A stretch of 64,000 nucleotides of DNA, taken from Fidelibacterota bacterium. GTDB taxonomy: Bacteria > Fidelibacterota > JAANXI01. The stretch is taken from NCBI GenBank assembly GCA_021734025.1, contig JAIPJS010000007.1:28441-92440 (forward strand), in the 5' to 3' direction. The position numbers and the translations under genes were made by a program. Shown one piece after another: positions 5,079 to 64,000 of the stretch (position 1 is the first letter of the stretch; each line of letters opens with the position of its first letter). The notes below the pieces were generated by a model. That model worked only from the letters and a program-made list of their open reading frames with translations, searched no databases and was not told the DNA's origin.

Positions 5079-5413
5079 AATAATTTTTGTCTTTTTCTCT
5101 TTGGGTATAATTAAACAGAACCCCAATCCACCGGATCGCCGGAAGGATATTTCCGGGAAATTGTTTATATTTTCAACAGCTGAGAACTGAGCACCCGTCC
5201 TAAAACGGTTTAAAGAGGAGGCTGGGCCCGGAGATAGGATTTGGATTACAATGAGATTGCTTCGGAATCAAAAAGCGTTATTTAAAAAGGGTTGGTACAA
5301 AATTTGAAGTTTTATTTACACAATTCAGACCATTTTTATTCCGGAGTCTTTATCACCGGGCCTGAAATTTTCGAGATGTAATACATTCAACGCCATGATG
5401 AAAGGAGCAAGTT

Positions 5414-8548: not shown

Positions 8549-8568
8549 TTGACCGACCAGTCAGTCAA
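8549..8568 (+). promoter_or_regulatory. Candidate TetR operator: imperfect palindrome TTGACCGAC-cag-TCAGTCAA, 19 nt upstream of the tetR-like gene
   Basis: Inverted repeat read directly in the sequence. Its position suits autoregulation. Confidence 0.4.
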
Positions 8569-8586
8569 ATTTATATTGCTATCGTT

Positions 8587-9216: not shown

Positions 9217-9287
9217 GGGATTTCCAGAGATTCGATGGGCTTCCCATCGCTGGGAGAAAATGTAATTTTTGGAACTGGAGTTCGATT

Positions 9288-14062: not shown

Positions 14063-14066
14063 AACT

Positions 14067-15320: not shown

Positions 15321-15529
15321 CTTCAGTGCTAGAGTGTTCAAGTGTTTTGGTGTTCGAGTTATTTCTTGATCTTACCCGTAATTTTAACTCTGTGGTCATC
15401 CGTTGTTTCTGCGTTCACCGACTTGTCGGGGACTGCGTGCTATTTTGCCGTTTTCACCTTGCCATTTTCCCGGATTTTCCCTATTTCTGTTTCCTGAATT
15501 TTCCACGCATTTAACAACTGAGAGAGACT
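15321..15529. repeat. Intergenic word-repeat spacer: GTGCTAGA-GTGTTCAA-GTGTTTTG-GTGTTCGA array, conserved motif CTGCGTTCA...TGTCGGGGACTGCGTGCTATTTT, and ATTTTCC word array
   Basis: Shares the GTGTTNAA octamer family with 37633-37769. The 23-nt motif recurs at 25174-25196. Confidence 0.4.
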
Positions 15530-28800: not shown

Positions 28801-31461
28801 TTCCTTATTCCGACTGGTTGTTTGTGACACCAGCGATTGGGCCATCTCCATTCTGTCTTTGAATTGTGTCGTCAGCGTTTCAAGTCGCTCCGGGAGATGA
28901 GACCGGGAAAAAATAGCCGCGTACCGCTCGGTATCGATTTCTCTGGAAAATTTCCGAAGCTCTCCGGCTATTTTTTCTTTGGAAAGCGTGGCGAGTCTCG
29001 CGGATAGTTCATTCCAGCGGTTTGCAGCATGATCGAAATGATTGGAACCGGGAGATTTCCGAACCGGCGGCGGAAGCGGTTCCCTGCTATAATTGGCGGC
29101 TTCTTCGCTGATAAGCCGGTTGAGGTCGATCAGTACCCGCCGGGCTTTATGCCGGAGTTCTTCCGCAGGATCAGCGCCGCCCAGGGTGAGGCGGAAGCTC
29201 TTGCGCGCCAGATCGAACCCTTCGGATGTTCTCGCAAAAGTGGTGAGCGGAACCAGGCCGATACCGCGGGTGGCCAGACCGATACCCAGCCAGTCCAGCG
29301 AGATGCCCGCGGGCAATTCGTCGATGGTGAGGTGCGGGTACATGGCGCCCTGCGGTGCACGGATACGAATGCCAAACGGATTCCGTTCTTCCGGCAGCGC
29401 TTCATGAGCATCCAACAGCGCCTGGAGGCGATCGTGTAAAATAGTATTCCTCATTTGCCAGAATTGACGTATATCTTCCTCGTGATTCCGGTAAAACAGG
29501 GAAGCGATGAGCACGGCAAATGTGTTCGGTACGATGCCGGCATTCATTGTGCTAAACCGCGCGAGAATCTCTTTGTCAGGGATATGTGCTACGGCCAACC
29601 GCGCACCGGCAAAGCAGTCGGTTTTGGAAAGGGAGTGAACGGTTATCAGGTTCCGGAGCTGGCTCGCCCGGATATGACCGCTCCGTTTAAGATCCTTCGC
29701 CAGGGCACGCATCGTTGGCGGACCGTTGAGAGATTCCATCGGGCCAAGATTTTCGTAAGCCAGGTCGTCAATCACGGTGATATCGTGGCTGAGTAGCCAC
29801 CGGAGCAGAAGTTTGACTTCTGAGGATTCGAATACCCTGCCGCTGGCGTTATGCGGATTGTTAAGGACAAATGCGCCGTACTCCCGCCATTCCGGATCAG
29901 CTTCCAGTTTTCCTCTGATATGATCGATGATGGCGCGGGCATCCAATGTCAGATTTTCACCCAGAGATACCGCCTCCACAGAGGGGAAGCAGTGCTCGTA
30001 CGTCCAGCTCAGGTCCGGTACCACGGCTTCACGAATTCCGCAGTGGAATCCCAGGAGACTCAACGCTGTCCTCGCAGAGCCGCTGACGACAGCGGCTGAT
30101 TCGGATTCGTATTCCGGATGATGCCGTAAGAACTGACTCAGCAGACTTTCGGTGATCTCTCCGGCGCTGAAACCGGGGTTACCGTGAACATATTTTTCAA
30201 CGATTTCATGTCGATCCATTCCCATGAGCGGATCGGAAATACCTGCATCCTCCGGGAGTACGGAGCGTCCCAAACGATCGCTGGTATCAGCCAGCCGCTC
30301 AACAAGCGATTCCGCCTTTGCCGCTCGACTTTCTACTATGTCTTGAATCCTGCTACCAAATCGTTCTGCCACTTCTGCTGTATATTCAAATTCTGTGATC
30401 GATGACGGATCAGCGACTTGCTTTTGACTATTTTCCTCTGATTCAGGTCCTCCGGAATCTCCTGAAAAAGCTCGTTCAATCTGTGTGGTGAGGAGGACGA
30501 TTTCCGCTCCGGAGGGCGTGCCCTTGAGCTGGAAGTGAATGGTCTCGAACAGTTTCACAAATTCCGCGTAGCCGGCGACGATGTTGAGAGAATCCGCGGT
30601 TATGGAAGAATGAATGGCAGATGGAGAGATGAACCGCAGCACCTGGTTCAGCATACCCGCTTCTCTGGCCAAAGAATGATGATTCAGCGCATCGTTCATC
30701 TCGATGAAAAACAGAGGATAGTCGAGGCTCATCCGGCGAAGTTCCCGGCGGACGCTTTCGCTATGAATCCTGAATAGCACCAGAAAGTGCGGTGATTCCG
30801 GAAGTGAGTTAAAGTGTGCAGAGAGAGTATCGAGGAGTTTTAACTCATCCGCTGGCGTTTGCGGGAATACCAGATTATCAAAGCTTGTCAGATGTTTCGG
30901 TATGGTATTGCCATGGGCAAATATGTACGCTGGCGTCTGGATGAGTGTGCGCGAAAGCGCATGAAACAGCACCCGCATATTTTCCTGTTGCCCACCGGCG
31001 CTGAATACGATTTCCCGGGGTTCGGATTCTCCGCCCAGACCGTAATCCAGTCCTTCTCGCTGGTGGTCCTCAAGCCAGCCCCGGACCAGTTCGGCGAGCC
31101 GGTTGGGTTTTTTTCCGGAGTAGCCACCTCTGGGGATATATTGGACGCTCTGTTCCATCGCCTCATACAGAAGCCGGAGTGTGGATTCATCGGTCTCTTC
31201 CCACAGAGTATTTTCTAGTGATCCCCTGAGCGCATCACCGTTCTGATGCCGGACATTTTTCGGTAAACCGGACACCAATGAGGCATATATATCCAGAAGT
31301 CGGCTGTCGTATACCGGATGACCGATATGGAAATTGACCTTTTTCTCCGCCGGGACGGGCGCGTTTGCTGTGGTCTCACTGATATCCGAGACCTTGACGG
31401 CCTTGAGCGGCCGAAGGCGAAAATATTCCAACGAACCGGGTGTAGTGGATGGTTGGTTCAT
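25831..31461 (-). CDS. Giant 1876-aa multidomain protein: unknown N-terminal region, PLP-dependent aminotransferase (fold type I)-like domain, and C-terminal divergent PEP-carboxylase-like region
   Basis: Aminotransferase motifs NNPHNASG (NPxNPTG-like), IDDLAYENL (DxAY), HSLSKTDCFAGARLA (SxSKxxxxxGxRxG with Lys). PEPC-like blocks ISMSDEP (ISMA/T), KVVPLFEDVD (VPLFET), EMVCELFVAGSDLSQQ...LAGAELYKEA (MVMIGYSDSxKDxG...W.LYKAQ), HGLVGNIRMKLGSGEPMQRQGG (G-rich loop), GVWAGGEFRTFQSN (GGLRVTEQGE). Continuous ORF with no frameshift. Confidence 0.6.
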   Translation of the reverse strand: MNQPSTTPGSLEYFRLRPLKAVKVSDISETTANAPVPAEKKVNFHIGHPVYDSRLLDIYASLVSGLPKNVRHQNGDALRGSLENTLWEETDESTLRLLYEAMEQSVQYIPRGGYSGKKPNRLAELVRGWLEDHQREGLDYGLGGESEPREIVFSAGGQQENMRVLFHALSRTLIQTPAYIFAHGNTIPKHLTSFDNLVFPQTPADELKLLDTLSAHFNSLPESPHFLVLFRIHSESVRRELRRMSLDYPLFFIEMNDALNHHSLAREAGMLNQVLRFISPSAIHSSITADSLNIVAGYAEFVKLFETIHFQLKGTPSGAEIVLLTTQIERAFSGDSGGPESEENSQKQVADPSSITEFEYTAEVAERFGSRIQDIVESRAAKAESLVERLADTSDRLGRSVLPEDAGISDPLMGMDRHEIVEKYVHGNPGFSAGEITESLLSQFLRHHPEYESESAAVVSGSARTALSLLGFHCGIREAVVPDLSWTYEHCFPSVEAVSLGENLTLDARAIIDHIRGKLEADPEWREYGAFVLNNPHNASGRVFESSEVKLLLRWLLSHDITVIDDLAYENLGPMESLNGPPTMRALAKDLKRSGHIRASQLRNLITVHSLSKTDCFAGARLAVAHIPDKEILARFSTMNAGIVPNTFAVLIASLFYRNHEEDIRQFWQMRNTILHDRLQALLDAHEALPEERNPFGIRIRAPQGAMYPHLTIDELPAGISLDWLGIGLATRGIGLVPLTTFARTSEGFDLARKSFRLTLGGADPAEELRHKARRVLIDLNRLISEEAANYSREPLPPPVRKSPGSNHFDHAANRWNELSARLATLSKEKIAGELRKFSREIDTERYAAIFSRSHLPERLETLTTQFKDRMEMAQSLVSQTTSRNKESVLKQLERELIPTSLDSKEENFRNRMFDRTVHPTQMNSLKVDILANKLFQSLLNGERIPEHRPDEISDELIEEYLGTNVPLLSREEMSELVNDLRMMVGTEEYARLRYNLDMPLLLSFWGDWDGSTRPSGQGHRLAAAALLENVSQLSGILQSLSERDKTIEISTELLDDIRRLDASKREFWDLLNEITSLTNQLEKRYQQVLPFGVQPGKLRKLGMRLRLARDPVRALWQHNDRLERKMRKLRDQRRENLEYYFALNQRLRKTLRKNLDVLEQHLEDPAVALKAGTYRDILKRFVLTPRIHQKMILAQDQFAIDATVHNITEINEIAGKYGHPGLVMALQISMSDEPEAFISLERKLRSRRDEVLRDNPGLDLPRIKVVPLFEDVDTVHNLESYLDSVWDYAGHSRKLDQSQIQRFSEMVCELFVAGSDLSQQMSQLAGAELYKEAKHRAMRWLTNHGLVGNIRMKLGSGEPMQRQGGYFDGNAGLPSTEISRPDALQLKRNLSEAGRRSLAYARSPLRGVWAGGEFRTFQSNVFERLRSLTNNQRIELFHHVTKSQQSYEEKLARASEPLVNTRLEFKERGAQDLEMLTRGHQNPVYEELTDLMTNNFRQILYGRPEDVVGIHVISYFIARTTPSLRDRPVVRPSRDSDENVGQQIVQKIAQTLPLSQHGSLLRAIGHNRSQTMVLGINQLTTGLFRALREFQDSRTSDNEGLAQIRKHILPQLPVYDILHTLRIYQDTELKYIGQMEPLFPASNSAFSALHEDYAAMQQYIRPLQKELLRRQGLDPDEFFTGNGFNLELLQFFRPDLAVLLQPDLFNTSLESLIPKRKSAGRSNGKWQVHMEDLLRMPGRIREWRAKTWNLVGEPIREQVERFVELAHAIQTLTQHEDAGGSRFTSDPTQAVRLGSQVTDLLKNVQDDSMRQFLHTVVQYLTQIPENVSEVPVDVIRALRDVERLVKIEEQALDQEEQTLLRFYLLQMARLAGENG

Positions 31462-52699: not shown

Positions 52700-53115
52700 A
52701 CCTTTCCTGCGGGAAGAGGGAATAGGGGTATAAGGGTATATGGTATGAGAACAGGAGTGTTAAAGTGTTACTTGTGTTATCGTTAAAAAGAACATGCATC
52801 GAGCGTACTCAATCCTATATCCAAAATGTATCGTCTGTTGGTGGTTCCCTCTTTAGAGGGGTGATCGGGAAAAACGAAAAATTTAGAATGAAAAAGGTGG
52901 TCGTTGGTTGTTGTGGGAAACTTTCCTTCCCGGGATTGCATCAGTATTATAAATATTAAGGATTCGCAATAAATCTCAACAACAAACAAAAGGGATTAAA
53001 AGGGAGATTAGGATTAAGAAGGTGTACAACGATAACACTGTAGCACTATAACACCTTAACACCCTAACACGGTCTTTTCGCATTACGTACTACTTACCAA
53101 TAAAACATTAAATAC
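52700..53115. repeat. Mosaic intergenic repeat region carrying modules in both orientations (GGGGTATAAGGGTATATGGTATGAG; GTGTTAAAGTGTTACTTGTGTTATCG; reverse complement of the TAATCTTA array; GATAACACTGTAGCACTATAACACCTTAACACCCTAACAC)
   Basis: Word arrays match copies A, B and C. Lies between divergent genes. Confidence 0.5.
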
Positions 53116-54204
53116 ATGCTCATGATTTTCATAATGCTACTGCTCAATCTTACGATTAACGGAATTTCCATGGATAGCACTGTACACTCGACATCACCGG
53201 CCCATCACACTGAGAACGGCTTCCGGAATCCGTATTCTACCTGGGAAGACCATGGATTCCGGGATATGCTCAAATGGAGTTTCAGCGATAAGCCAGAGAT
53301 TCCGGAAACCTATACGCTCCCGTGGGTTGAAAATAATCTTTCCTTCCTTGGAGAAAACAGTAGTCCGTCCTATACCTGGATAGGCCACGCTACATTCCTC
53401 ATCGAAATCGATGGTAAGACGATATTGACCGATCCGTTTTTCTCCGACCGTGCGAGTCCGGTGCAATGGGCCGGCCCAAAGCGAATGGTGCCGCCTGCTT
53501 TACCACTCGAGGACCTGCCGCCAATCGATTTTGTAGTGATTTCCCATAACCACTATGATCACCTGGATTATCACACTGTCAAATATTTAGCAGACCGGGG
53601 CAGCCACTTTATCGTGCCACTGGAAATGGATAAATGGTTCCGGGGCCACGGGATGCCGAATGTTACTGCTCTGGACTGGTGGCAGCGTTTTTCCAATGAT
53701 GGTCTTACATTTCATGCGACTCCGGCACAGCATTTTTGTGCCCGAACGCCGTTCGACCGGAATGACGTTCTCTGGGCCAGTTGGGTGATCGAATCGACTG
53801 ATCATGTCTGCTACTTCGCCGGGGATACCGGTTATTTTCCAGGATTCAAAGAAATCGCAAATCGTTTCCCCGCGATTGATGTCGCGCTCCTCCCAATCGG
53901 CGCCTATGCGCCCCGGTGGTTTATGGGGCCAGTGCATCTTGATCCGTCGCAGGCTGTGCAGGTTTTTACCGACCTGGGGGCAGAATATGCGATTGCCATG
54001 CACTGGGGCACGATTAAACTGACAGACGAAGCCATGGACGAACCACCAATCCTGCTGAAAGAATCCTTGAAATCTGCGGGGATCCCTTCTGAGCGATTTC
54101 CCGTGTTTGCCCACGGTGAAACCAGGAGGATGATGGAAGAAGGATGGCGTATACTGCAGGGTACTGAGGCGCAGAAAACTCTCAGGAATTTTTCCCTCCC
54201 CTAA
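53116..54204 (+). CDS. MBL-fold metallo-hydrolase (NAPE-PLD-like)
   Basis: VVISHNHYDHLD (HxHxDH). Downstream His/Asp ligands. Confidence 0.75.
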   Translation: MLMIFIMLLLNLTINGISMDSTVHSTSPAHHTENGFRNPYSTWEDHGFRDMLKWSFSDKPEIPETYTLPWVENNLSFLGENSSPSYTWIGHATFLIEIDGKTILTDPFFSDRASPVQWAGPKRMVPPALPLEDLPPIDFVVISHNHYDHLDYHTVKYLADRGSHFIVPLEMDKWFRGHGMPNVTALDWWQRFSNDGLTFHATPAQHFCARTPFDRNDVLWASWVIESTDHVCYFAGDTGYFPGFKEIANRFPAIDVALLPIGAYAPRWFMGPVHLDPSQAVQVFTDLGAEYAIAMHWGTIKLTDEAMDEPPILLKESLKSAGIPSERFPVFAHGETRRMMEEGWRILQGTEAQKTLRNFSLP

Positions 54205-54470
54205 AGGTTACAGGCGTTTTCAAAACCGGTAATACACCACGATAATCTCTCTTAATTATGAGAAATGAGAGCGTTGTTCTCATCTTATTTTATGAATGAG
54301 AGCCGAAGTCACATTTTGATATAATGCCCATATATCAGTAGTTGTAAAATATTTCAACACTCCTGGCATCAAATTTGTAAAATAATTAAACGACCTTCTT
54401 TTTTTATCGCCGGTTTTGATACTTATCCCGGCAGTCTCTGTTAAAGCATACAAGTGAAAATGAGGATTCA

Positions 54471-54908
54471 ATGAGCCAGGATTTCAAGCGTCGGACTATA
54501 GTAAACTGGTTGCTCGGAGGGGGAGTAATTGCGTGGCTGAGCGCAATATTTTTCCCGGTATTAAAATACCTCCAACCGCCGAGTATTCCGGAAGCGGTGG
54601 TTTCTTCGGTCAAGGCTGCAACTGTTAATGAACTAGCAAATAACTCCAGTAAAATATTCAAATTCGGAAATAAACCGGGCCTCTTGATCAAGACGCCTGC
54701 AGGAGAGTGGCGTGCTTTTACGGCCATCTGTACCCATTTGGATTGCATTGTCCAATATCGGGACGACCTGGAGCATATCTGGTGTGCCTGTCATAACGGC
54801 CATTACGATCTGCAGGGGCGTAATATCTCCGGACCGCCACCCAGACCGCTGGAAGAATACGACGTTAATATTCAGGGAAAAGACGTCTACGTATCGAAAA
54901 GGACGTAA
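54471..54908 (+). CDS. Rieske [2Fe-2S] protein of a bc/b6f-type complex
   Basis: CTHLDC and CACHNGHY boxes. N-terminal TM helix. Confidence 0.85.
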
Positions 54909-54916
54909 ATATATTA

Positions 54917-55980
54917 TGAAAGAGTCAATTCTAAGTTGGTTAAAAAACAGATATCCCGTTGATTCCGTCACGGAATTTGCCCAAAAGAAAAAGGTGCCTC
55001 TGTTTCAGGGGACTATCTGGTATTACTTCGGCGGAATCACCCTCTTTTTGTTCCTGATTCAGGTTGCGACCGGCATTTTACTCCTGTTTTACTACCGGAC
55101 CGGTGCCGACCAGGCGTATGAGAGTGTGAAGTTTTTAATGACAAAAGTCCATTTCGGCTGGTTGATCCGCTCTATTCACAGCTGGGCGGCGAATTTGATG
55201 GTGCTCTCTGCCTTTATCCATATGTTCAGCGTCTTTTTTACGCGGGCGTATCGTAAACCACGGGAACTGACCTGGATAACGGGGATGGTGTTATTCCTGC
55301 TGGCTATGGCATTTGGATTTAGTGGCTACCTGCTCCCATGGAATGAGTTAGCTTTTTTCGCGACTAAAGTCGGGACCGATATCGTCGGCGCTGTGCCGTT
55401 CGTAGGAGATTTTCTGCTCACCCTGTTACGCGGCGGGAGCGACGTGACCGGGGCTACGCTTTCACGCTTTTTCGGATTTCATGTAGCGCTGTTTCCGGGA
55501 ATTTTTACTCTCTTCCTAGTTATACATCTTGCGTTTGTCCAGGTCCAGGGTATGAGTAAGCCCATCGGTGCCAAAGAGGAAGAGCTGAAAACGATGCCGT
55601 TTTTTCCGAATTTTGTTTTGCGGGATCTTCTTATCTGGCTCATCGTGCTCAACGTACTGGCCATCCTGGCCGTCTTCTTTCCCTGGGAGCTCGGAGCAAA
55701 GGCTGATCCCTTCGTTCCAGCGCCAGCGGGCATCCGCCCGGAATGGTATTTTATGTTTATGTTCCAAACGCTCAAGATGTTGCCCGCACACATCGCTGGG
55801 CTCGAAGGAGAAACCGTTGGCGTCATGGCGTTTGCTATCGCAGGTATTTTTTGGATTTTGATTCCGTTTTTCGATCGCTCCTCCCAGCGGGGACATAAAT
55901 CGAAACTGTTAACGTACATAGGAATAATTGTCGTCATCTTCATTCTCGTCATGACAATTTTAGGATATACGCTCTCATGA
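54917..55980 (+). CDS. Cytochrome b (fused b6 / subunit IV type)
   Basis: Haem-ligand His pairs in polytopic helices. PEWY-like region [11 protein letters not shown]. Confidence 0.8.
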
Positions 55981-57233
55981 AACGAATACTCATTGTCACT
56001 GTATTGAGCCTGTTATTTGTATCAATCGCTTCCGGTCAACAGGAGGAAGAAATAAATACCTGCGCTGACTGTCATGAGATGATGGGGGCGCCCTACGATA
56101 GTATCGTCCATGCGCAATCCCAGGATATCCATGCCCAGAAGGATGTGACCTGTGCCGATTGTCATGGCGGGGATCCGACTACGATGGATTTTGAGGCAGC
56201 GAAGGCGCCGGAAACAAGATTTCGCGGGAAACCCGATCCCGCGGAAATTCCGGATCTTTGTGGATCGTGTCATGCTGATCCGGAATATATGCGCCAGTTT
56301 GATCCGGGATTGGCGGTCGACCAGCTCGCGAAATACTGGACGAGTCGTCACGGAGAGAAACTCCGGGAGGGGGATGCGAAAGTTGCTGAGTGCGCGAGCT
56401 GTCACGGTGCCCATGGTGTGCTGCCGGTAGACGATCCCCGCTCGCCGGTATATCCAACACGGGTCCCGGAAACATGCAACACCTGCCACGGCAATTCACA
56501 GTACATGGCTGAATACAATATTCCAACGGACCAGTACGAAGAATTCGCCGGGAGTGTGCACGGGCAAGCACTTCTCGAGAACAAGGATATCGGTGCGCCG
56601 GCATGTAATGACTGTCACGGAAATCACGGCGCTACTCCTCCGGGGATAGTTTCCATATCCCGGGTGTGCGGAACATGCCATATCAATAATATGGATCTGT
56701 TTCAGGAAAGTAAGCATGAGCCGATCTTCGACATGATGGATCTGCCTGAGTGCGAAACGTGCCATGGAAATCACGGGGTCCAACATCCCACCGATGCGAT
56801 GATTGGCACCGGGGAGGAATCTGTCTGCCTGAATTGTCACGGCGAAGGAGACAGCGGCTATAAAATGGCGGCAGCCATGTCTGAGTCTATCGACTCCCTG
56901 AAAATGGTCTACGATTCGGCTGAAGTCATGATTCAGCGAGCTGAAGAGAAAGATATGGGGGTCAGCGATCTGGAGTATTCCCTGCGGGAAGTTCGCCAGT
57001 CATTGATTCAAACCCGTACAATGATCCACAGTTTTGACGTATCCAGGGTTGAGGAGATAGAAAATGAAGGGCTGTCCGTGGGACAAGAAATTATCCGTTC
57101 AGCCAGGGAGCTTATTGATGAATTTTACTACCGACGAAAAGGGTTGGGGATTTTTACTCTGGTCATCACACTCGTTGTGATTGCACTTTATCTGAAGATA
57201 CGACATATGGAACAGCAAAAACCTTCCGATTAA
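55977..57233 (+). CDS. Multihaem c-type cytochrome (9 CxxCH) with C-terminal TM anchor
   Basis: Nine CxxCH motifs were counted. Signal peptide. C-terminal hydrophobic helix. Stop/start overlap with cytochrome b. Confidence 0.8.
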
Positions 57234-57326
57234 TTTTAAATAGACCCGGGATTCCGGGACTCGCATTGTTCTGCATTTCTAAAATGCCGGCTCAAGAGCC
57301 GAACCGGCAATAACAATGAAGGAAAC

Positions 57327-58976
57327 ATGGGCGACGACGCACCGGATTATCAGGATCTGGCTCGTGAACTCTCCACCCTCCGTACGATGGTGGAAAAGGT
57401 GCATGAGCGCGTCCGCCGGCTTGAACGAGCCGCAGGATTCAGGCCAGGGCAGATAACAACTCCTGAACAACCGAGATCAACGGAAGCGGAGGCTTTGGCC
57501 GGGACGCCTTCCGCCCCTAAAATTAGTCTTGAACAGCGTATCGGAGAATATTGGTTTGCCCAGGCCGGGATCGTAATCTTCATATTAGGACTTATTTTTC
57601 TGATCAGCTATACGTTTACCGAGTTCCGTCCATTTTGGCAAGCAGTCACAGGTTACGGGATCACGTTTTTGATCTTTGGCCTTTCCCGGCTGATGCAAAA
57701 GCGGTTCACCTTTTTGTCGGAGATCCTTTTTCCGGGCAGTTTGCTCTTATTGTACTATGTGACCCTGCGACTCCATTTTTTCCATGCGGAGCCAATTATA
57801 TCGAATAAGGCGATCGCCCTTACGCTCTTGTTAATCATTCTTGGCATCCAGCTCCGGATTACCTGGCAAAAGGATTCACAGTTATTAGCGTTTATGCCGG
57901 TACTTCTTGGCTTCTTAACGGCATTGTTGAGTGATACTCATCATTTTGCACTTATCCTGATTGTGGCAACAGCTGTTGTGGCAGCACTACTCTTTTCGAT
58001 CAAACATTGGCAGATATTTGGAATTGCTAGCATAGGTTTTACCTATGTATCATTCTTGATATATCTCTTAAATAACCCCATTCTCGGAAAAGAGATTCAA
58101 TTACTCCCCCGGCATGACTGGATGCTAGTGTACCTCGTGGCTACACTGATTGTTTTCACCTTGGTCAGTTTCCGTCCCCGGGTCAATGAGTATCTAACCC
58201 GTGTAACCCGGATTGCCCTTACTACCGTAAATTCCAGTGGATTTTATCTCGTGGCGCTGCTAGTGACCTTTCACTTTTTTCATCAGAATTTAGCGTTCTG
58301 GAATTTTGTTTTTGCTGGAGTGCTGTTTGCTATCGCCACAGCTCACTGGACAATCCGACAGAGTAAGTATTCGACCTCTTTCTATGCGAGCTTTAGTTAC
58401 ATTGCGTTAACTATCGGTATACTATCCGCAGCCGAAGCTCCCGATATTTTCCTGTATTTAGTATGGCAAAGTGCGATTGTTATCGGGACAGCGATTTGGT
58501 TCAAATCCGGTATAATCATCTGGGCGAATATGGGAATTTATTTGATTGTTCTCCTTGCCTATCTGTTCGTACCGGCGGAATCAGGGATGGTGAATGTCCA
58601 TTTTGCCATTGTTGCATTTTTCAGCGAACGCTTGCTGACTGTAGGAACGGTGCGGATTAAAAAGACCCCGGTTTTCTTCCATTACATATACGTGTTTACG
58701 GGATATGCTATGCTTGTTTACGGTTTAGCCCTCCTTTTACCGCCAGGTTACGTGAGTATGTTTTGGTTTATTGTGTCCGCCGGTATCATGGCCGTGGGAT
58801 ATGTATTGGATCTGCGATATTATAAGTGGATTGGTTTCAGCAGCATCGTTGCACCTGTATTCCGGATCTTTATTATTGATTTGGCCGCACTTGAGCCGAT
58901 TTATCGGGTTTTCTCCTTTGTGGCCATCGGAGCCGGCCTGATGGCTATCGCGATATTTTATACGCGAAAAGGGTGA
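57327..58976 (+). CDS. Polytopic integral membrane protein (DUF2339-like) with N-terminal cytoplasmic coiled coil
   Basis: About 14 hydrophobic helices following a charged N-terminus. No catalytic motif recognised. Confidence 0.45.
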   Translation: MGDDAPDYQDLARELSTLRTMVEKVHERVRRLERAAGFRPGQITTPEQPRSTEAEALAGTPSAPKISLEQRIGEYWFAQAGIVIFILGLIFLISYTFTEFRPFWQAVTGYGITFLIFGLSRLMQKRFTFLSEILFPGSLLLLYYVTLRLHFFHAEPIISNKAIALTLLLIILGIQLRITWQKDSQLLAFMPVLLGFLTALLSDTHHFALILIVATAVVAALLFSIKHWQIFGIASIGFTYVSFLIYLLNNPILGKEIQLLPRHDWMLVYLVATLIVFTLVSFRPRVNEYLTRVTRIALTTVNSSGFYLVALLVTFHFFHQNLAFWNFVFAGVLFAIATAHWTIRQSKYSTSFYASFSYIALTIGILSAAEAPDIFLYLVWQSAIVIGTAIWFKSGIIIWANMGIYLIVLLAYLFVPAESGMVNVHFAIVAFFSERLLTVGTVRIKKTPVFFHYIYVFTGYAMLVYGLALLLPPGYVSMFWFIVSAGIMAVGYVLDLRYYKWIGFSSIVAPVFRIFIIDLAALEPIYRVFSFVAIGAGLMAIAIFYTRKG

Positions 58977-59391
58977 CTTTCCCGGAAATGAGCATCAATC
59001 GGATTTCGTTGAAAAAATTTACTTTCCCTGTTGTGATGTCACGGATTTTCGTTGAATTAGTCAACGTAGGGGAAAGAAGTCCAATTATTGAGAAAAGTTT
59101 GAAACCGATTTCCTATTTGTAAAAAATAGTGTTGATATTTTCAACAATTCTGCCTAAAAAGATAAGAACCCACAGGGGTTCTGCGAATTCTGCCCTTGGC
59201 ACATTATTTGAAACATTATATTGCGTAATGAGAAGACAACAGTACAGTCAAATATTGGATTGTTGGCGGCAGACTTGCTGTTGCTCTCGAAGAATGCAAC
59301 CAATTTTTGCCGGAGATCGGTTCTGACCATTGATGTTTGGAATCCGATTTCTGGCAATTTTGTATCTTTTCAATTTGAAGGGGGATTTTTA

Positions 59392-61149
59392 ATGAAAAGG
59401 TTGCCTCTAATTTTAATTCTCGCACTCGGTTTTGTGGTTGCAGGTCTGGTCAGCTGTGAAAAAGAGAAGATCGTTGAAGCTGAACCGGCCATCAAAGTCA
59501 CCGAAGTTGTTGCGTCTGATACCATGGTTACCCAGGGTAAGACGGTAACGCTGACAGCAACACTCGAAACCGATGAAGAAGTCGACGCGGCATCCATTGA
59601 ACTGAAATGGTTTGCGGCGAACGGCGAATTCGTAGGACACGTCAGTGAAGGTGATACCGTGACCTGGAAAGCGCCGGCGGAAGATGGCGTTTATCGGGTG
59701 ACTGTCCACGCCACCGACGGAGAAAATATCGCCATCGGTATGCGGGATCTGGGTGTAAACGAATATGCACCTTCCGCAGATGTCTACTATGTCGGCGATG
59801 AAGCTTGTGGCCAGTGTCATGGCGATACGCACACGGATTGGGCTGAAACGGGCCATGCCGATGCGTGGGCCAGCCTGCAGAGCAGTGGGCATCCCGCACC
59901 GTATTGCGAACCGTGCCATACAGTTAATCAGGTGGATACCGACGGCAATTCCGGCTACGATGAAGTACCGACAGCGAAGTTCGTTGATGTGCAGTGTGAA
60001 AGCTGTCACGGACCCGGTAGTGACCACATTAGCGGTCCATCCGCTGATAACATCACAAGCCAGGAAGCAATTTTAGCTGAAGAAACCTGTGCGGTCTGTC
60101 ATGAAGGCGGGCACCATCCGTATCATGAACAGTGGACAGAATCGGCTCACAACTTTGATCCGGCTACCGCTGCTCATGGAGCTGGTGCACGTTCGTACTG
60201 CCAGCCGTGCCATAGCGGAACCGGTTTTGTCGAAGCGTTTGACGATGAATACACCGATCTGTATGCAAACGCCGAAAACAAGATGGGCATCACGTGTGGT
60301 GTTTGCCATGATTCACACAATAGCGACAATGTCGGACAGTTGAGAACGGTTGCGTCGTACGAATTCCTCGGCGGTGAAGTTGCCGATGAAGGCGGCGCAG
60401 GTCAGCTCTGTGTTCAGTGTCACCATGCACGTCATGATGGCGAAGAACAGATTCCGGCAGGCGACGAACACTTTGGGCCGCACGGTTCGACCCAGGGTGA
60501 TGTTGTTTACGGAACCACTGGTTATGAAGAAGTTGCACCTGATTTTCAGTTCGCCAGCACCGGTCACGGTCTGGTGGAAGACGCTTGTGCAGCATGTCAC
60601 GTCTACATGACCGAATATGATGAGACGACGGACTTCGCCAATGTGGGACATACATTTGAACCGCGTGTCGAATCCTGTAGCCAGTGTCACGGATCGGATA
60701 TCACCGATTCCTTCAGAGATATTCAGGCCAAGAACGATTTCGATAACGACAATTCCATCGAACCCGTTCAGGATGAAGTGGAAGGTCTGATCCATCTGCT
60801 GGCCGTCAAACTGGTGGAATATGACAACGCGAATAACGGCGGGAAATATCTTGACAATCCTGACCCGAACGCTGACGGTTTCCTGACCACGGTTATGGAT
60901 TCCATTAACAATACCTACACAGACAGTACCGAGTCTGGTGCCGTTGAACTTCGTAAAGGGGGTTTCAACCTCTTCTATGCGTATGACGACGGAAGCACGG
61001 GTATCCATAATCCGGCGTATGTCATTCAGTTGCTGCAGCAGAGTGTGCTGTATTACGATCCAAACGCATTTGATGATGGCGGATTGCTGGTTGGAGGAAA
61101 AGCCACCACTCTTGGTGCAGCCGACCGGATTACCACAGCGATGCAATAG
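59392..61149 (+). CDS. Multihaem c-type cytochrome lipoprotein (9 CxxCH)
   Basis: Lipoprotein signal ...GLVSC. Nine CxxCH motifs. Ribosome-binding site GAAGGGGGA. Confidence 0.8.
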   Translation: MKRLPLILILALGFVVAGLVSCEKEKIVEAEPAIKVTEVVASDTMVTQGKTVTLTATLETDEEVDAASIELKWFAANGEFVGHVSEGDTVTWKAPAEDGVYRVTVHATDGENIAIGMRDLGVNEYAPSADVYYVGDEACGQCHGDTHTDWAETGHADAWASLQSSGHPAPYCEPCHTVNQVDTDGNSGYDEVPTAKFVDVQCESCHGPGSDHISGPSADNITSQEAILAEETCAVCHEGGHHPYHEQWTESAHNFDPATAAHGAGARSYCQPCHSGTGFVEAFDDEYTDLYANAENKMGITCGVCHDSHNSDNVGQLRTVASYEFLGGEVADEGGAGQLCVQCHHARHDGEEQIPAGDEHFGPHGSTQGDVVYGTTGYEEVAPDFQFASTGHGLVEDACAACHVYMTEYDETTDFANVGHTFEPRVESCSQCHGSDITDSFRDIQAKNDFDNDNSIEPVQDEVEGLIHLLAVKLVEYDNANNGGKYLDNPDPNADGFLTTVMDSINNTYTDSTESGAVELRKGGFNLFYAYDDGSTGIHNPAYVIQLLQQSVLYYDPNAFDDGGLLVGGKATTLGAADRITTAMQ

Positions 61150-61290
61150 CGGCATACTGTAGTTTCTGAGTGAACGAGAAATAAGAATTTTAGGGGGGCA
61201 GCACTTTTAAGAGCCCCCCTAAAATTTAATTTGGATGACGAATAACAAATTCCATGGCAGGATAAGTAAACAGGAATCCGGGACTACGAT

Positions 61291-62499
61291 TTGAGGACAA
61301 TTATGAGAAAGAACGGACTTGTATTCGTGTTGGCGCTGCTGGTGTTGCTGCCTATAATCGGGCAGGCCCAATCCGGGTTTTCCGGTGCGTATATCGGAAA
61401 GTTTACAACCCAGGAACGGGGGGCCGATGACGGGGCAACAGAACAGCAAATGCGTCTGTATAATCGTATCCTGTTACAGTATGAACCATCAGAAAATTTT
61501 GCATTAAAAACAGCACTGAGACGCGCAGACTATTTTCAGGAAAGTATCGGGAATACGCATCTGTACTATGCGTATGCCGACTGGGCTGTCACCCAAAATA
61601 TTGGAGTGATGGTTGGCCGGCAATATCCCTATAACAAGATGATCCGGCGGGCAATTGATGGACTCAGCCTGGATTGGCAGGTGATGCCGCACTGGTCGAT
61701 TGAAGGCATTTGGGGACTGTACACTCCGTACGATCGGGCCGGTTTAATCGAGAACCCGGAAGATGAGCACGGATATTACATGGGACTACGGTACACCGGG
61801 AATGAGAACTCCACGCTTCGGGCGTCCGGATATCAGCAGGTGAGCCAGGGACGGATTTTAAATTTCGCTGGAATGGACGGACGCTATGCCGATCTCTGGG
61901 GAATAAATTTGTACGGATTTTTTAAATATAATATCACACAAAATTTTGTACAGGAGGCAGAGGGACAGCTCCGGCGTCAGTTCGGTGAAAATTTCTCGGT
62001 TTCCGCCGCATATAAATACCGGGATCCGAATTTCGACCTGCCGGAATGGTACTGGCAGTTTGCCGTCGAGCCTTATACGAATGTCAGGGCGGGATTTGAT
62101 TGGTTTCTGACTCGTACCGGAAGTCTTTCTCTGGAATATTTTACCCGGATGATGACGGATGAAACCATCCGGCGATACAAATTGGGATGGGTTGCCTCCG
62201 ACTGGACAGCCGGAGTAGTCTATGCGGCCAACGAGGATGGCACATCAGAAGAATGGAACGCTTACGGCAGCATCCAGCATCGCTTCGGAAAAAGTCTGTT
62301 AGTGGGCGCTGGCGTTGATTACTTTGATTATGTCTTTAACGAAACGTATGAAGAACCGCTCAATGCGTTCGGTTCCAATGTTTTTGCACGGTATCGGTTT
62401 GGGAATGCCTTAACAACGGGCCTGCGGCTGTATTATTTAACCAATCCGCAATATTCCAATGACGTCCGGCTGTTGGGTGAACTCAGTTACCAGTTCTAG
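61291..62499 (+). CDS. Outer-membrane beta-barrel protein (porin-like, terminal F) embedded in the cytochrome cluster
   Basis: Signal peptide. Aromatic-rich alternating strands. C-terminal ...LSYQF. Confidence 0.55.
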   Translation: MRTIMRKNGLVFVLALLVLLPIIGQAQSGFSGAYIGKFTTQERGADDGATEQQMRLYNRILLQYEPSENFALKTALRRADYFQESIGNTHLYYAYADWAVTQNIGVMVGRQYPYNKMIRRAIDGLSLDWQVMPHWSIEGIWGLYTPYDRAGLIENPEDEHGYYMGLRYTGNENSTLRASGYQQVSQGRILNFAGMDGRYADLWGINLYGFFKYNITQNFVQEAEGQLRRQFGENFSVSAAYKYRDPNFDLPEWYWQFAVEPYTNVRAGFDWFLTRTGSLSLEYFTRMMTDETIRRYKLGWVASDWTAGVVYAANEDGTSEEWNAYGSIQHRFGKSLLVGAGVDYFDYVFNETYEEPLNAFGSNVFARYRFGNALTTGLRLYYLTNPQYSNDVRLLGELSYQF

Positions 62500-62515
62500 G
62501 AAGGTGAAAGCGCAT

Positions 62516-63391
62516 ATGAAAATTCTTGTACAGGTTTGCTTGCTGGTACTTTTCCCGTTGACGCTTGTCTTCGGCGCCTCCGATGGCGATACAACGAATT
62601 TTGAATTTTCGCATAAGTACCATAACGAAATGGGACTCGGCGACTGCTCTACATGTCATATGAGTGCCACCGAAAGCACCACCGGCACTGATGATTTACT
62701 CCCCAACGCAGAAACCTGCACCATGTGCCATGGCGATGCGGTGACTCCACCGACAAATCTCAAGCGTATCACAGATTATCAGACAATTTTTTCGCACAAG
62801 CGCCACGCGGTAGATGAGGAAATTGAGTGCAGTTCATGCCATGAAGGTATTCTCGAGGATGAGGCAATTACAGCTGATCATCTGCCAACGATGAACGACT
62901 GCTATTCCTGCCATATGGAGGATGTGAAGCAGGTGCCGGAAGATTGTGGAATGTGCCACGGTCCGGAAGAGCGGTTAACGCCGAAAACCCATACCGCGAC
63001 CTGGGAAAATTATCACGGTATGAAGGTGAGCAGTACCGGAAACCGGGGAGAGTGCGCTACCTGTCACGTAGAGGAATCGTTCTGCCAGGATTGCCATTTT
63101 GGCGATAATGTGGTGCAGCAGACCCATCCCACGAACTGGGAGTATACGCACGGGATTGAAGCACGCCGGCAATCCACGGATTGTAGCACATGCCACGAGA
63201 GCAAACAATTTTGTGCGGATTGCCATCAGGCCAATCTGGTGATGCCGATTACACACTCGGTACCGAGTTGGGCAACGAAAGCAGGCGGAGGCCGTCACGC
63301 GGAGGAAGCCACCATGGATATAGATAATTGCGCATCATGCCACACGAATCCGGCAGACGATCCTACCTGCCTGGAATGCCATAGTAATTAG
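62516..63391 (+). CDS. Multihaem c-type cytochrome (11 CxxCH)
   Basis: Signal peptide. Eleven CxxCH motifs. Confidence 0.8.
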   Translation: MKILVQVCLLVLFPLTLVFGASDGDTTNFEFSHKYHNEMGLGDCSTCHMSATESTTGTDDLLPNAETCTMCHGDAVTPPTNLKRITDYQTIFSHKRHAVDEEIECSSCHEGILEDEAITADHLPTMNDCYSCHMEDVKQVPEDCGMCHGPEERLTPKTHTATWENYHGMKVSSTGNRGECATCHVEESFCQDCHFGDNVVQQTHPTNWEYTHGIEARRQSTDCSTCHESKQFCADCHQANLVMPITHSVPSWATKAGGGRHAEEATMDIDNCASCHTNPADDPTCLECHSN

Positions 63392-63407
63392 AATGAGAGG
63401 GCTCTTC

Positions 63408-64000
63408 ATGAAGATTTTTCGGTTTCTTAGGATTGCGATTGCGGGGATCCTCTGTGTGGCTGTGGTATTATCCTGCAGCGAAGAGAAATCTCCCACCGAT
63501 ATTGCAACGCATCCCCAGGGATGGAATGACGTAAACTCAGAGGTGTTTCACGGCGAGAAAGTTGCCGCGAATCACGGTATAGATAACTGTATGACCTGCC
63601 ACGGTGAAACTCTGGATGAAGGGGGCGAAAGCGGCGTGGCCTGTACTGATTGTCACAATTCCGGTCAGGTAGAGCAGAAAGCGACGCATAATGTTCGTGT
63701 TCAGCAACTAGGCTGGGAAATTGAAACCTGTACGTATTGCCACGGATCGGATTACACTGGCAACGAGATAACGGAAGATTGCACCACCTGCCATACTCGG
63801 GAGGCAGGACCTGAAGCCTGTAATACCTGCCACGGTGATTTTGACGCCGAGGGCGAGCTGACCAAGCAGGACATCGCACCGCCGCCGGCACTCCGCGGCG
63901 AAACCGGACCGGTGTATGCAGGCGTCGGTCTGCATCAATTCCATTTGGATAAAGGCTTAACCTGTATCGGGTGCCATGCCGATGATGTAGATCATTTTGA
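63408..64000 (+). CDS. Multihaem c-type cytochrome lipoprotein (partial, runs off window; at least 6 CxxCH)
   Basis: ATG at 63408. Signal ...VLSCS. CMTCH, CTDCH, CTYCH, CTTCH, CNTCH, CIGCH. Confidence 0.7.
   Translation, partial: MKIFRFLRIAIAGILCVAVVLSCSEEKSPTDIATHPQGWNDVNSEVFHGEKVAANHGIDNCMTCHGETLDEGGESGVACTDCHNSGQVEQKATHNVRVQQLGWEIETCTYCHGSDYTGNEITEDCTTCHTREAGPEACNTCHGDFDAEGELTKQDIAPPPALRGETGPVYAGVGLHQFHLDKGLTCIGCHADDVDHF

Follow-up and report, generated by a model that had tools for sequence, protein, structure and literature searches.

A candidate porin-cytochrome conduit linked to two quinone-pool modules in an uncultured Marinimicrobia (Fidelibacterota) bacterium

The last part of the window—the whole 64-kb stretch of DNA analysed here—carries a run of eight genes for a Rieske/cytochrome b pair, multihaem cytochromes, and an outer-membrane barrel. 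The host is an uncultured Marinimicrobia (Fidelibacterota) bacterium known from metagenomes only; identical proteins carry the Candidatus Marinimicrobia label in NCBI, in line with the FCB-group host proposed in a first-pass annotation of the DNA. The gene order and all gene positions of that annotation were recovered, with every gene on the plus strand:

54364..54377, plus strand: sigma-54-type -24/-12 motif TGGCATCAAATTTG, 5' of the Rieske gene
54471..54908, plus strand: Rieske 2Fe-2S subunit, 145 aa (PF00355, E 7e-13)
54916..55980, plus strand: cytochrome b, 354 aa (PF00033, E 1e-52; PF00032, E 2e-12)
55977..57233, plus strand: MHC1, nonahaem cytochrome c, 418 aa, 9 CxxCH
57327..58976, plus strand: DUF2339 polytopic membrane protein, 549 aa (PF10101, E 2e-10)
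59130..59146, plus strand: palindrome TGTTGATATTTTCAACA, conserved across the intergenic alignment of four relatives
59197..59210, plus strand: sigma-54-type -24/-12 motif TGGCACATTATTTG, 5' of MHC2, in an invariant alignment block
59392..61149, plus strand: MHC2, nonahaem lipoprotein, 585 aa, 9 CxxCH, lipobox LVSC then EKEK
61303..62499, plus strand: outer-membrane beta-barrel, 398 aa including the signal peptide, ending SYQF
62516..63391, plus strand: MHC3 cytochrome, 291 aa, 11 CxxCH, Sec signal
63408..64000, plus strand: MHC4 haem lipoprotein, lipobox LSC then SEEK, cut at the window end

The suspicion that the cluster continues beyond the window proved correct—a public Marinimicrobia MAG containing the same contig supplies the remainder of MHC4, the multihaem lipoprotein that had been seen to run off the end, together with two more genes. 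The full cluster comprises ten genes, of which the window carries the first eight. At its full length of 244 aa, MHC4 has six CxxCH motifs and one CxxxCH (seven haems); it is followed by MHC5, a tetrahaem, c554-like cytochrome of 191 aa, and by a last gene encoding 668 aa in which 11 haem motifs are fused to a cytochrome b domain (the CbcL-like protein). Unrelated genes for CNNM, GAPDH, and PhoU lie downstream. Four distinct relative loci, with barrels that share 51-62% identity with the one in the window, have all ten genes in the same order and the same haem counts (9, 9, 11, 7, 4, and 11). The CbcL-like gene is split in two in one relative (L004), and in two other lineages (L025 and L045) the gene families are linked in different orders.

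Two conserved motifs, assigned to the sigma-54 type by sequence, head the two halves of the cluster. In the 64-kb window their common pattern, TGGCAY-N4-TTTG, has just two occurrences (0.29 expected; 2 of 100 shuffles reach two), and it is found at both equivalent positions in every clade relative, the block around TGGCACATTATTTG being invariant where the intergenic alignment is otherwise 47% identical. The palindrome TGTTGATATTTTCAACA lies some 60 nt 5' of the second -24 element and may be the site of an activator or regulator; it has two window matches at ≤1 mismatch where 0.17 are expected. The cluster may be read as two putative operons that would connect the quinone pool with the cell surface—unit 1, consisting of the genes for the Rieske protein, cytochrome b, MHC1, and DUF2339 protein, and unit 2, consisting of those for MHC2, the barrel, MHC3, MHC4, MHC5, and the CbcL-like protein.

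Unit 1 is predicted to encode a b6-type Rieske/cytochrome b complex in which the c-type subunit is a membrane-anchored nonahaem cytochrome. The Rieske protein has a Tat-like (twin-arginine) KRR N-terminus and a single TM segment, and it carries CTHLDC and CACH motifs; its best NCBIfam matches are b6f-type Rieske models, with scores under their cut-offs. In the cytochrome b, a b6-like N-terminal part is fused to a subunit-IV-like part, with seven hydrophobic (TM) segments, His pairs at 88/102 and 189/204, and a PEWY motif; the protein has no Cys and therefore no haem ci site, and its NCBIfam scores of 229 bits for cytochrome b6 and 209 bits for ExtP are both under cut-off. The MHC1 and cytochrome b genes share 4 nt at their start/stop junction. 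This overlap, the nine haems, and the C-terminal anchor (a TM segment) of MHC1 agree with the first-pass annotation; the protein has nine CxxCH motifs, a Sec signal, and a helical stalk. MHC1 is presumably the third subunit of the complex, replacing cytochrome c1 or f: of the 43 metagenomic relatives for which the sequence extends 2 kb or more upstream, all have the Rieske gene as a neighbour and 42 have cytochrome b. The CbcL-like protein has a paralogous c-domain, 28% identical to MHC1 (E 1e-29). The fourth gene, recorded earlier as a 14-TM membrane protein, belongs to the DUF2339 family; a crude hydropathy scan gives about 14 hydrophobic segments behind a coiled-coil-like cytoplasmic N-terminus. 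This gene keeps its position in all clade relatives and adjoins the Rieske-cytochrome b-MHC1 trio at four other metagenomic loci. The trio itself is widespread. Of 12 trio loci flanked by 5 kb or more in both directions, only 2 have the barrel family, so the trio may be a complex III of general use and not one reserved for a conduit. The earlier suggestion of a bc-type module directly fused to the conduit holds as genetic linkage, but not as fusion or exclusivity, given that the trio stands beside the barrel in a minority of lineages.

The barrel is the centre of unit 2. Its ORF, read from TTG 61291, encodes 402 aa ending in F (SYQF), as first annotated, and public records start it at ATG 61303, giving 398 aa. 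The number of strands had been proposed as a check, and the structure model shows 22 in ~376 mature residues, with a longest strand-free stretch of 17 residues and with neither a plug domain nor a long constriction loop; the wide lumen that results makes a protein partner inside the barrel plausible. The barrel matched no Pfam family, porin families included (a null that would cover the MtrB/PioB family if the library contains it), and a profile search of 1.84 billion representatives recovered a family of 93 representative sequences of ~400 aa, with named members in Calditrichia, Fidelibacterota, KSB1, and Ignavibacteriales. The barrel neighbourhoods that we examined, at seven loci (L008, L009, L013, L014, L015, L025, and L045) and in the clade itself, cover FCB-type lineages as well as Desulfuromonas. 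In every one, the gene directly after the barrel homologue encodes an MHC3 homologue (10-14 haems), most also have a multihaem lipoprotein cytochrome, and several have a c554-like tetrahaem cytochrome.

A generic porin, belonging to a family found apart from cytochromes, had been named as the outcome that would speak against a conduit; in the neighbourhoods examined, distant lineages included, the barrel never occurs without them. It is very improbable that an ordinary diffusion porin has come by chance to lie near unrelated periplasmic electron carriers, considering that the barrel-MHC3 pairing is invariant in these neighbourhoods, across very distant lineages and despite rearranged surroundings, that the barrel family is narrow for the size of the collection searched, and that a promoter motif is common to both units. 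Further evidence comes from Desulfuromonas carbonis, where a porin (404 aa), a 10-haem cytochrome (273 aa), an 18-haem lipoprotein, and a 10-haem OmcA/MtrC-like lipoprotein are encoded in this order. The barrel profile aligns with the D. carbonis porin over 371 columns (hhalign 99.6%, E 2e-24; HMM 152 bits), and the MHC3 family HMM scores 107 bits on the 10-haem periplasmic cytochrome; the two pairs are homologous and share the same gene order. The barrel is, in our reading, the porin component of a conduit rather than a generic porin, and MHC3, for which the structure model is poor (pLDDT 64), is a candidate haem wire within it, in the position of OmaB or MtrA.

Two lipoproteins are predicted for the outer face. 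MHC2, whose likely start is 59392 rather than the upstream TTG of a longer ORF, is the 9-haem lipoprotein of the first-pass annotation; it joins an Ig/PKD-like N-terminal domain (a borderline PKD match, 23.3 bits) to a nonahaem core resembling OcwA (PDB 6I5B; matched at E 1.3e-12 over residues 130-438 and again in the C-terminal helices). OcwA, a protein with two high-spin haems, is the nonahaem surface terminal reductase of Thermincola and also reduces nitrite and hydroxylamine (PMC6703420); by this likeness, MHC2 is a candidate surface terminal reductase. MHC4 is the putative outer-membrane cytochrome in the OmcB position, with homologous lipoprotein cytochromes following the MHC3 homologue in a Calditrichaeota-named MAG and a Bacteroidetes-named protein cluster (E 3e-25 and 2e-19).

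These features might also suggest a reductase for a soluble compound—selenite, tellurite, nitrite, hydroxylamine, or a sulfur species—with no trans-membrane wire, the barrel serving as a substrate uptake channel and an OcwA/NrfA-like MHC2 acting as the catalyst in the periplasm or at the surface. [quoted passage not shown] On the contrary, Ext-specific NCBIfam models score far under cut-off, and the barrel matches no porin family, the phosphate-porin type included. A 22-strand barrel without a constriction loop would also make a poor selective channel, and its invariant partner is MHC3, not MHC2, the MHC2 type being absent or replaced in L008 and L014. A nitrite or sulfite reductase system had likewise been raised at first annotation as an alternative home for these cytochromes, yet CxxCK is absent from the cluster proteins, no reductase gene that could be a partner lies downstream of the cluster, and there is no rhodanese, molybdopterin, or sirohaem partner gene. 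We therefore regard a soluble-compound reductase as unlikely.

We consider it probable that the cluster encodes a Pcc-type conduit fed by two quinol modules and passing electrons outward to an extracellular acceptor. Electrons from quinol would enter either the Rieske/cytochrome b-MHC1 complex, which with a Q-cycle would be energy-conserving, or the CbcL-like protein, a putative second quinone-pool module of the CbcL/MtoC type. Both modules would deliver to MHC5, acting as a tetrahaem c554-like periplasmic shuttle, and MHC5 to MHC3 threading the 22-strand plug-less barrel; MHC3 would then pass electrons to MHC4 (seven haems) and MHC2 (nine haems) on the outer face, and these to an extracellular acceptor, for example an Fe(III) or Mn(IV) oxide, a humic substance, or a partner cell. 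Some observations fit this route poorly. The acceptor of a Rieske/cytochrome b complex must have a fairly high potential, which low-potential iron minerals match badly; by analogy, an OcwA-like protein may act on nitrite and hydroxylamine as well (PMC6703420), and the closest bc-linked porin cluster, Ext, bears on selenite and tellurite rather than Fe(III) reduction (PMC5877670).

The same hardware could instead carry electrons inward, the source being extracellular Fe(II), a reduced mineral, a cathode, or a partner cell, with the CbcL/MtoC-like protein as quinone reductase and the Rieske/cytochrome b complex running uphill or feeding a terminal oxidase. The literature does not set CbcL/MtrH/MtoC homologues of Fe(III) reducers apart from those of Fe(II) oxidisers and concludes that the family may act both ways (PMC6295460), and Mtr/Mto/Pio-type porin-cytochrome conduits run in both directions (PMC6295460, PMC4245776). 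A division into uphill and downhill branches would be in keeping with the presence of two different quinone-pool modules in the cluster, and hypABFCD hydrogenase maturation genes directly follow the cluster in several relatives. Inward flow nevertheless seems doubtful to us: there are no carbon-fixation or terminal oxidase genes in or near the cluster, the window has genes for citrate synthase and 2-oxoglutarate dehydrogenase E1/E2, typical of a respiring heterotroph, and MHC2 resembles a terminal reductase. Moreover, the closest homologous porin-cytochrome pair found is that of Desulfuromonas, a group of Fe(III)- and sulfur-reducing bacteria.

Compared with known systems, the outward conduit that we favour differs from Ext in several of its parts. 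All Ext models score under cut-off here (ExtP 209 against 290, ExtM 23 against 800, and ExtKL 17 against 250); the cytochrome b is fused with its subunit-IV part, whereas ExtP and ExtQ are separate; and the rhodanese (ExtH) and selenoprotein of Ext are absent, while the DUF2339 and CbcL-like genes present here are missing from Ext. ExtI weakly resembles phosphate porins, whereas the barrel is unrelated to Pfam porins. The last gene of the cluster resembles the CbcL/MtrH/MtoC family in combining a multihaem c domain (11 CxxCH) with an FdnI/HydC-like cytochrome b of ~5 TM segments, and in adjoining an outer-membrane conduit, as in several published cases (PMC6295460), although it has 11 haem motifs against nine in the known family. 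A 2018 survey of this family covered 15 phyla, Marinimicrobia not among them (PMC6295460). Like OcwA of Thermincola potens, MHC2 has nine CxxCH motifs, aligned from the first haem motif to the C-terminal helices, and is predicted to be the last redox protein at the cell surface; OcwA, however, has a Gram-positive host and no lipid anchor, whereas MHC2 is a diderm lipoprotein with an extra Ig/PKD-like domain and a barrel as neighbour.

The proposed arrangement of a ~300-aa haem-dense cytochrome in a barrel, passing electrons to a surface lipoprotein cytochrome, also recalls MtrCAB of Shewanella. MtrB in 6R2Q has 26 strands. The barrel here has 22 strands in 398 aa against an MtrB chain of ~650 residues (PDB 6R2Q), and MHC3 carries 11 haems in 291 aa against 10 in 333 aa for MtrA; on the DmsE/MtrA decahaem model, MHC3 reaches 18.5 bits where the cut-off is 192, and none of the ten proteins reaches the cut-off of 209 on the OmcA/MtrC family model, the sole match being MHC5 with 26 bits.

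The Geobacter-type Pcc architecture recognised at first reading gains support from the barrel-MHC3 pairing, the Desulfuromonas homology, and the lack of reductase signs. As judged by sequence, the link to Pcc runs through the Desulfuromonas cluster, itself uncharacterised. Pcc systems pair a porin of 18-22 trans-membrane motifs with a periplasmic cytochrome of 5-14 haems, and their outer-membrane cytochromes often bear atypical haem motifs (PMC4245776). In likeness to ombB-omaB-omcB, the ~400-aa barrel here falls within 18-22 strands, an 11-haem Sec-exported cytochrome directly follows, and there are lipoprotein multihaem cytochromes, one with an atypical CxxxCH. OmbB-like Pcc clusters were earlier reported in Ignavibacteria, another FCB lineage (PMC7399161), and our literature search found no paper in which either Pcc or extracellular electron transfer is tied to Marinimicrobia or Fidelibacterota, and no report of a conduit with the present set of parts. 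Beyond the Pcc plan, the cluster adds a gene for an OcwA-like nonahaem lipoprotein upstream of the barrel, along with two inner-membrane quinone modules and a periplasmic shuttle in one cluster. The type of conduit is familiar from Geobacter; what is new here, as far as the literature search shows, is the phylum and the set of parts.

An open reading frame listing and motif counts recovered, on the + strand, every gene that the first-pass annotation had read as a candidate porin-cytochrome electron conduit joined to a Rieske/cytochrome b module. Together with two more past the window end, the genes fall into two units—unit 1, encoding a Rieske protein, cytochrome b, a multihaem cytochrome c (MHC1) and a DUF2339 protein, and unit 2, encoding MHC2, an outer-membrane beta-barrel as the proposed porin, three further multihaem cytochromes (MHC3, MHC4, and MHC5) and a CbcL-like protein. 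Rieske, cytochrome b, and DUF2339 were assigned with Pfam and NCBIfam, and transmembrane (TM) segments were counted with a simple hydropathy scan.

Features of the cluster within the window
54364-54377: sigma-54-type motif, ~95 nt before the Rieske gene begins
54471-54908, + strand: Rieske protein, 145 aa; KRR N-terminus, one TM segment, CTHLDC...CACH
54916-55980, + strand: cytochrome b, 354 aa; b6-like and subunit-IV-like parts, 7 hydrophobic segments
55977-57233, + strand: MHC1, 418 aa; 9 CxxCH, Sec signal, C-terminal TM segment
57327-58976, + strand: DUF2339 protein, 549 aa; ~14 TM segments
59197-59210: sigma-54-type motif, ~180 nt before MHC2 begins
59392-61149, + strand: MHC2, 585 aa; 9 CxxCH, lipobox LVSC
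61303-62499, + strand: barrel, 398 aa, ending SYQF; a 402-aa ORF begins at an upstream TTG
62516-63391, + strand: MHC3, 291 aa; 11 CxxCH, Sec signal
63408 onwards, past the window end, + strand: MHC4; lipobox LSC

The expectation that the cluster continues beyond the window was borne out on the extended contig, which supplied three more parts: the rest of MHC4 (244 aa in full, with 6 CxxCH and 1 CxxxCH), MHC5 (191 aa, a c554-family cytochrome with four haems; PF13435, E 1e-18), and the CbcL-like protein (668 aa, with 11 CxxCH and an FdnI/HydC-like cytochrome b domain). A gap of ~780 nt follows the CbcL-like gene, and because genes for CNNM, GAPDH, a metallo-beta-lactamase-fold protein, and PhoU come next, we count ten genes in the cluster. 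The signs proposed for a periplasmic nitrite or sulfite reductase system were both absent: no cluster protein has a CxxCK motif, and no reductase partner gene comes after the cluster. Contig JAIPHM010000021.1 of NCBI assembly GCA_021735205.1 encodes MHC1 and MHC3 without a single residue changed, and proteins identical to the barrel and MHC3 carry the label Candidatus Marinimicrobia. Elsewhere in the window (415-1740 and 25831-31461, - strand) lie a 441-aa protein with a T9SS sorting domain, which fits an FCB-group host, and a very large ORF of 1876 aa whose sole recognized domain is an aminotransferase.

In the four close relatives among the loci of homologues that we collected (L004–L007), the CbcL-like gene, with its b domain of HydC type, is followed by hypA, hypB, hypF, hypC, and hypD (from 16201 in L004, 15905 in L005, 17109 in L006, and 16571 in L007), with a GAPDH gene in between in L006 and L007. 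We dropped these hydrogenase maturation genes as a candidate part of the cluster because the window's own genome has CNNM, GAPDH, and PhoU in their place. In L004 the CbcL-like protein is itself split into a cytochrome c gene with 8 CxxCH (13682-14539) and a cytochrome b gene (14676-15602), reflecting either natural fission or an assembly frameshift.

The 64-kb window holds exactly two copies of TGGCAY-N4-TTTG, a motif in line with the -24/-12 consensus for sigma-54, one before each unit (chance expectation 0.29; 2 of 100 shuffles reached two copies). Both positions are kept in all clade relatives (L004–L007 and L010), whose intergenic regions are otherwise ~47% identical, a pattern that suggests two RpoN-dependent, co-regulated operons. 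No convincing intrinsic terminator was found between the units, nor any Rfam RNA family in 53000-64000. A conserved palindrome, TGTTGATATTTTCAACA (59130-59146), precedes the second motif by about 60 nt, and a one-mismatch copy at 5162-5178 precedes the citrate synthase gene (5414-6709); a common regulator could read both sites.

The first genes of unit 1 carry the hallmarks of a bc1/b6f-type complex—Rieske ligand motifs, two cytochrome b His pairs (88/102 and 189/204), and a Qo-site PEWY (RPEWYF)—with no Cys in cytochrome b and a b6-like 14-residue spacing in the second pair (189/204). The third gene, instead of a monohaem cytochrome c1 or cytochrome f, encodes the C-terminally anchored nonahaem cytochrome MHC1, its start overlapping the stop of cytochrome b. 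Scanning metagenomes with an MHC1 alignment returned at least 322 candidate relatives, from which we kept 80 that were 40–51% identical over their full length and searched their loci with HMMs of the cluster proteins. Where at least 2 kb of upstream sequence was available, Rieske and cytochrome b genes adjoined MHC1 in 43 and 42 of 43 loci, respectively. Other partners were sparser: the barrel family lay nearby in two (L025 and L045, with the same families in other gene orders) of the 12 loci that extended 5 kb or more in each direction, and CbcL-like, MHC5-like, and DUF2339 genes were near MHC1 in 10, 13, and 4 of the 80. Among four long loci sampled (L068, L073, L088, and L093), several neighbors were again multihaem cytochromes, and no oxidase appeared among the neighbor genes scanned. 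Because Rieske was constant and the barrel was not, we conclude from gene content that the Rieske–cytochrome b–MHC1 trio, an obligate unit of three genes present on hundreds of environmental contigs, is a widespread complex-III variant joined to the barrel in some lineages only; the link between the two is real but modular.

Two long metagenome contigs held another arrangement: upstream of Rieske, cytochrome b, MHC1, DUF2339, and CbcL-like genes, L029 (2990-6188) and L037 (2758-5988) encode a ~360-aa 10-haem cytochrome followed by a 700–730-aa haem-free protein without a Pfam family, a pair that may represent a different outer-membrane conduit, perhaps with an MtrB-like barrel, on the same inner-membrane modules.

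The Rieske/cytochrome b–nonahaem module raises the testable question of whether extracellular electron transfer can be coupled to a Q-cycle. It is a possible, if doubtful, extension of these data that the trio forms a distinct and widespread class of complex III feeding multihaem cytochrome networks, Pcc-wired (that is, joined to a Geobacter-type porin-cytochrome conduit) here and in at least two other lineages, under shared sigma-54 control; we know of no study of it as such a class. If this were true, extracellular electron transfer would be coupled to a proton-motive Q-cycle, unlike the CymA, ImcH, and CbcL routes of model organisms, and mineral or interspecies respiration would extend to a widespread uncultured phylum.

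We then considered the barrel, whose strand number the first-pass annotation had proposed to predict. An AF2 model built on the close-family alignment (pLDDT 78) has 22 DSSP strands in ~376 mature residues, with no strand-free stretch longer than 17 residues and neither a plug domain nor a long constriction loop; a signal peptide and a terminal F mark the two ends of the protein. By the standard geometry formula, we infer a C-alpha radius of ~20 Å for 22 strands, and an unplugged lumen of that width is plausibly filled by a partner protein. The close family is small: clustering at 90% identity gives 18 groups, all sharing 51% identity or more with the query and, where named, assigned to Marinimicrobia. 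A profile search of 1.84 billion representatives widened this to 93 related barrels of ~400 aa, with named members in Calditrichia, Fidelibacterota, KSB1, and Ignavibacteriales. The barrel profile had no meaningful match in the PDB, a word-indexed search with the broad alignment added next to nothing, and a scan of GTDB genomes with the narrow alignment returned one locus, already among those collected.

The neighborhoods of these homologues bear on whether the barrel is simply a generic porin living without cytochrome partners, as had been allowed for at the outset. We examined the four close relatives (L004–L007), two loci with distant barrels (L008 and L009), two found via MHC3 homologues (L014, from a MAG named Calditrichaeota, and L015, from a protein cluster named Bacteroidetes), the metagenomic L025 and L045 found via MHC1, and L013 of Desulfuromonas carbonis. 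In all of them an MHC3 homologue with 10–14 haems comes directly after the barrel homologue, as in the window, where the MHC3 gene begins 16 nt past the barrel gene; this co-occurrence contradicts the generic-porin reading. An MHC4-homologous lipoprotein cytochrome comes next in L009, L014, L015, L025, and L045, and an MHC5-homologous c554-like tetrahaem cytochrome is nearby in L008, L009, L015, and L045. The AF2 model of MHC3 is of low confidence (pLDDT 64, below 50 in the C-terminal half), and its Foldseek matches (ActA of alternative complex III, E 0.02) are uninformative as to an MtrA-like rod.

Two neighborhoods showed further peculiarities. In L014, large multihaem cytochromes (1-615 and 3507-6293) bear the T9SS C-terminal sorting domain Por_Secre_tail, which suggests T9SS-exported surface cytochromes beside the barrel–MHC3 pair. 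In L008, the distant barrel is preceded by a lipoprotein cytochrome (8568-10004) that is split into a 62-aa ORF with the lipobox and 1 haem motif and a 412-aa ORF with 8 haem motifs, which could reflect a frameshift or recoding event.

The D. carbonis locus has the omb-oma-omc arrangement: a haem-free protein of 404 aa, which has a signal peptide and ends in F, is followed by a 273-aa 10-haem cytochrome and a 1029-aa 18-haem lipoprotein, with an 877-aa lipoprotein as the fourth gene (120 bits to the OmcA/MtrC model, cut-off 209). The barrel-family profile aligned with the 404-aa protein from end to end (hhalign 99.6%, E 2e-24, 371 columns; HMM 152 bits), and the MHC3-family profile matched the 10-haem cytochrome with 107 bits.

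Among the remaining cytochromes, MHC2 matched OcwA (PDB 6I5B; phmmer E 1.3e-12), the match beginning at the first haem motif and reaching the C-terminal helices, with aligned stretches at MHC2 residues 130-438 and 533-550; nine haem motifs in OcwA order and the C-terminal helical bundle are shared. Unlike OcwA, MHC2 has a lipid anchor and, by a borderline match, an Ig/PKD-like N-terminal domain. OcwA serves Thermincola potens as a nonahaem terminal reductase at the cell surface; it is a structural relative of NrfA, c554, and MccA with two high-spin haems, and reduces iron oxides and shuttles as well as nitrite and hydroxylamine (PMC6703420). The CbcL-like protein has the CbcL/MtrH/MtoC architecture, an N-terminal multihaem c domain and a C-terminal HydC/FdnI-like b domain (as defined in PMC6295460), with five hydrophobic segments after the c domain and matches to PF01292 (70.8 bits) and TIGR01583 (57 bits) at residues 417-630. 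MHC1 is a paralogue of its c domain (28% identity, E 1e-29). In both MHC2 (CEKE) and MHC4 (CSEE), acidic residues follow the lipidated Cys, a character kept in relatives. The surface-export signal of Bacteroidota lipoproteins resembles such a stretch, and by analogy we treat it as a lead only.

Taken together, the best reading of the gene content is a Pcc-type outer-membrane conduit supplied by two quinone-pool modules. The barrel, MHC3, and MHC4 would form the conduit, the OcwA-like MHC2 would act as an additional surface cytochrome, and MHC5 would serve as a tetrahaem shuttle feeding the conduit from the Rieske/cytochrome b–MHC1 module and from the CbcL-like protein. We favor outward electron flow, with respiration of an extracellular acceptor, because genes for citrate synthase and for components of 2-oxoglutarate dehydrogenase lie in the window, as expected of a respiring heterotroph, because MHC2 resembles a terminal reductase, and because the closest homologous barrel–MHC3 pair found is in Desulfuromonas, whose members reduce Fe(III) and sulfur. 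These same points make inward electron uptake by the same conduit improbable in our view, even with the CbcL/MtoC family proposed to work in both directions (PMC6295460). Reduction of a soluble oxyanion by the cluster has a precedent in the Geobacter Ext cluster and a possible chemical basis in the nitrite and hydroxylamine side activities of OcwA; we judge it quite unlikely.

Marinimicrobia are uncultured bacteria that abound in oxygen-poor waters and sediments, with respiratory options known from genomes only. For the phylum, also named Fidelibacterota, we found nothing relevant in the literature on multihaem cytochromes, porin-cytochrome systems, or extracellular electron transfer. A conserved, self-contained route from quinone pool to cell surface would add respiration of metal oxides, humic substances, or partner cells, or electron uptake, to the possible roles of these bacteria. 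The cluster would also offer a compact test case in which every stage is encoded together, from the alternative pair of quinone modules through the shuttle and the barrel wire to two candidate surface cytochromes, one of the OcwA type characterized so far in a Gram-positive organism only. Putative porin-cytochrome clusters have already been predicted in many phyla, and the present case, drawn from genomes alone, is an incremental advance rather than a new principle.

Among known systems, the cluster most resembles the Pcc clusters, in which porins with 18–22 trans-membrane motifs accompany periplasmic cytochromes with 5–14 haems and outer-membrane cytochromes often with atypical CX3-15CH motifs, at identities down to 8% (Shi et al. 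2014, PMC4245776); OmbB-like clusters were reported earlier from Ignavibacteria (PMC7399161). The barrel has 22 strands, a signal peptide, and a C-terminal F; the adjoining MHC3 has 11 CxxCH and a Sec signal; and MHC4, with its one CxxxCH, and MHC2 are lipoprotein cytochromes that are candidates for surface placement. The likeness to Geobacter Pcc is drawn from published description, and the homology match, as indirect support, is to the D. carbonis pair. The HMM comparison with MtrABC that the first-pass annotation had proposed gave no such correspondence, as the MtrA and MtrC/OmcA models all stayed below cut-off: the MtrA/DmsE model TIGR03508 scored 18.5 bits for MHC3 and 57.7 bits for MHC1 (cut-off 192), and the MtrC/OmcA model TIGR03507 matched MHC5 alone (26 bits, cut-off 209). 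Nor does the barrel, with 398 aa, 22 strands, and no Pfam match, look like a member of the MtrB/PioB family of MtrCAB, MtoAB, and PioAB; the MtrB chain in 6R2Q has ~650 residues and forms a 26-stranded barrel. This kind of system is already known, and Rieske/cytochrome b joined to a porin and multihaem cytochromes has a precedent in Geobacter extHIJKLMNOPQS. With that cluster ours has only the general architecture in common: the Ext equivalog models fell short (ExtP 209 of 290 bits, ExtM 23 of 800, ExtKL 17 of 250), the cluster lacks a rhodanese (ExtH-type) gene, and no porin family was matched by the barrel, whereas ExtI is phosphate-porin-like. What would set the present cluster apart is its host phylum, its apparently shared sigma-54-type promoters, and a predicted combination of parts in which a bc complex having a nonahaem subunit is encoded together with DUF2339, an OcwA-like lipoprotein, a Pcc core, a shuttle of c554 type, and a CbcL-like protein.
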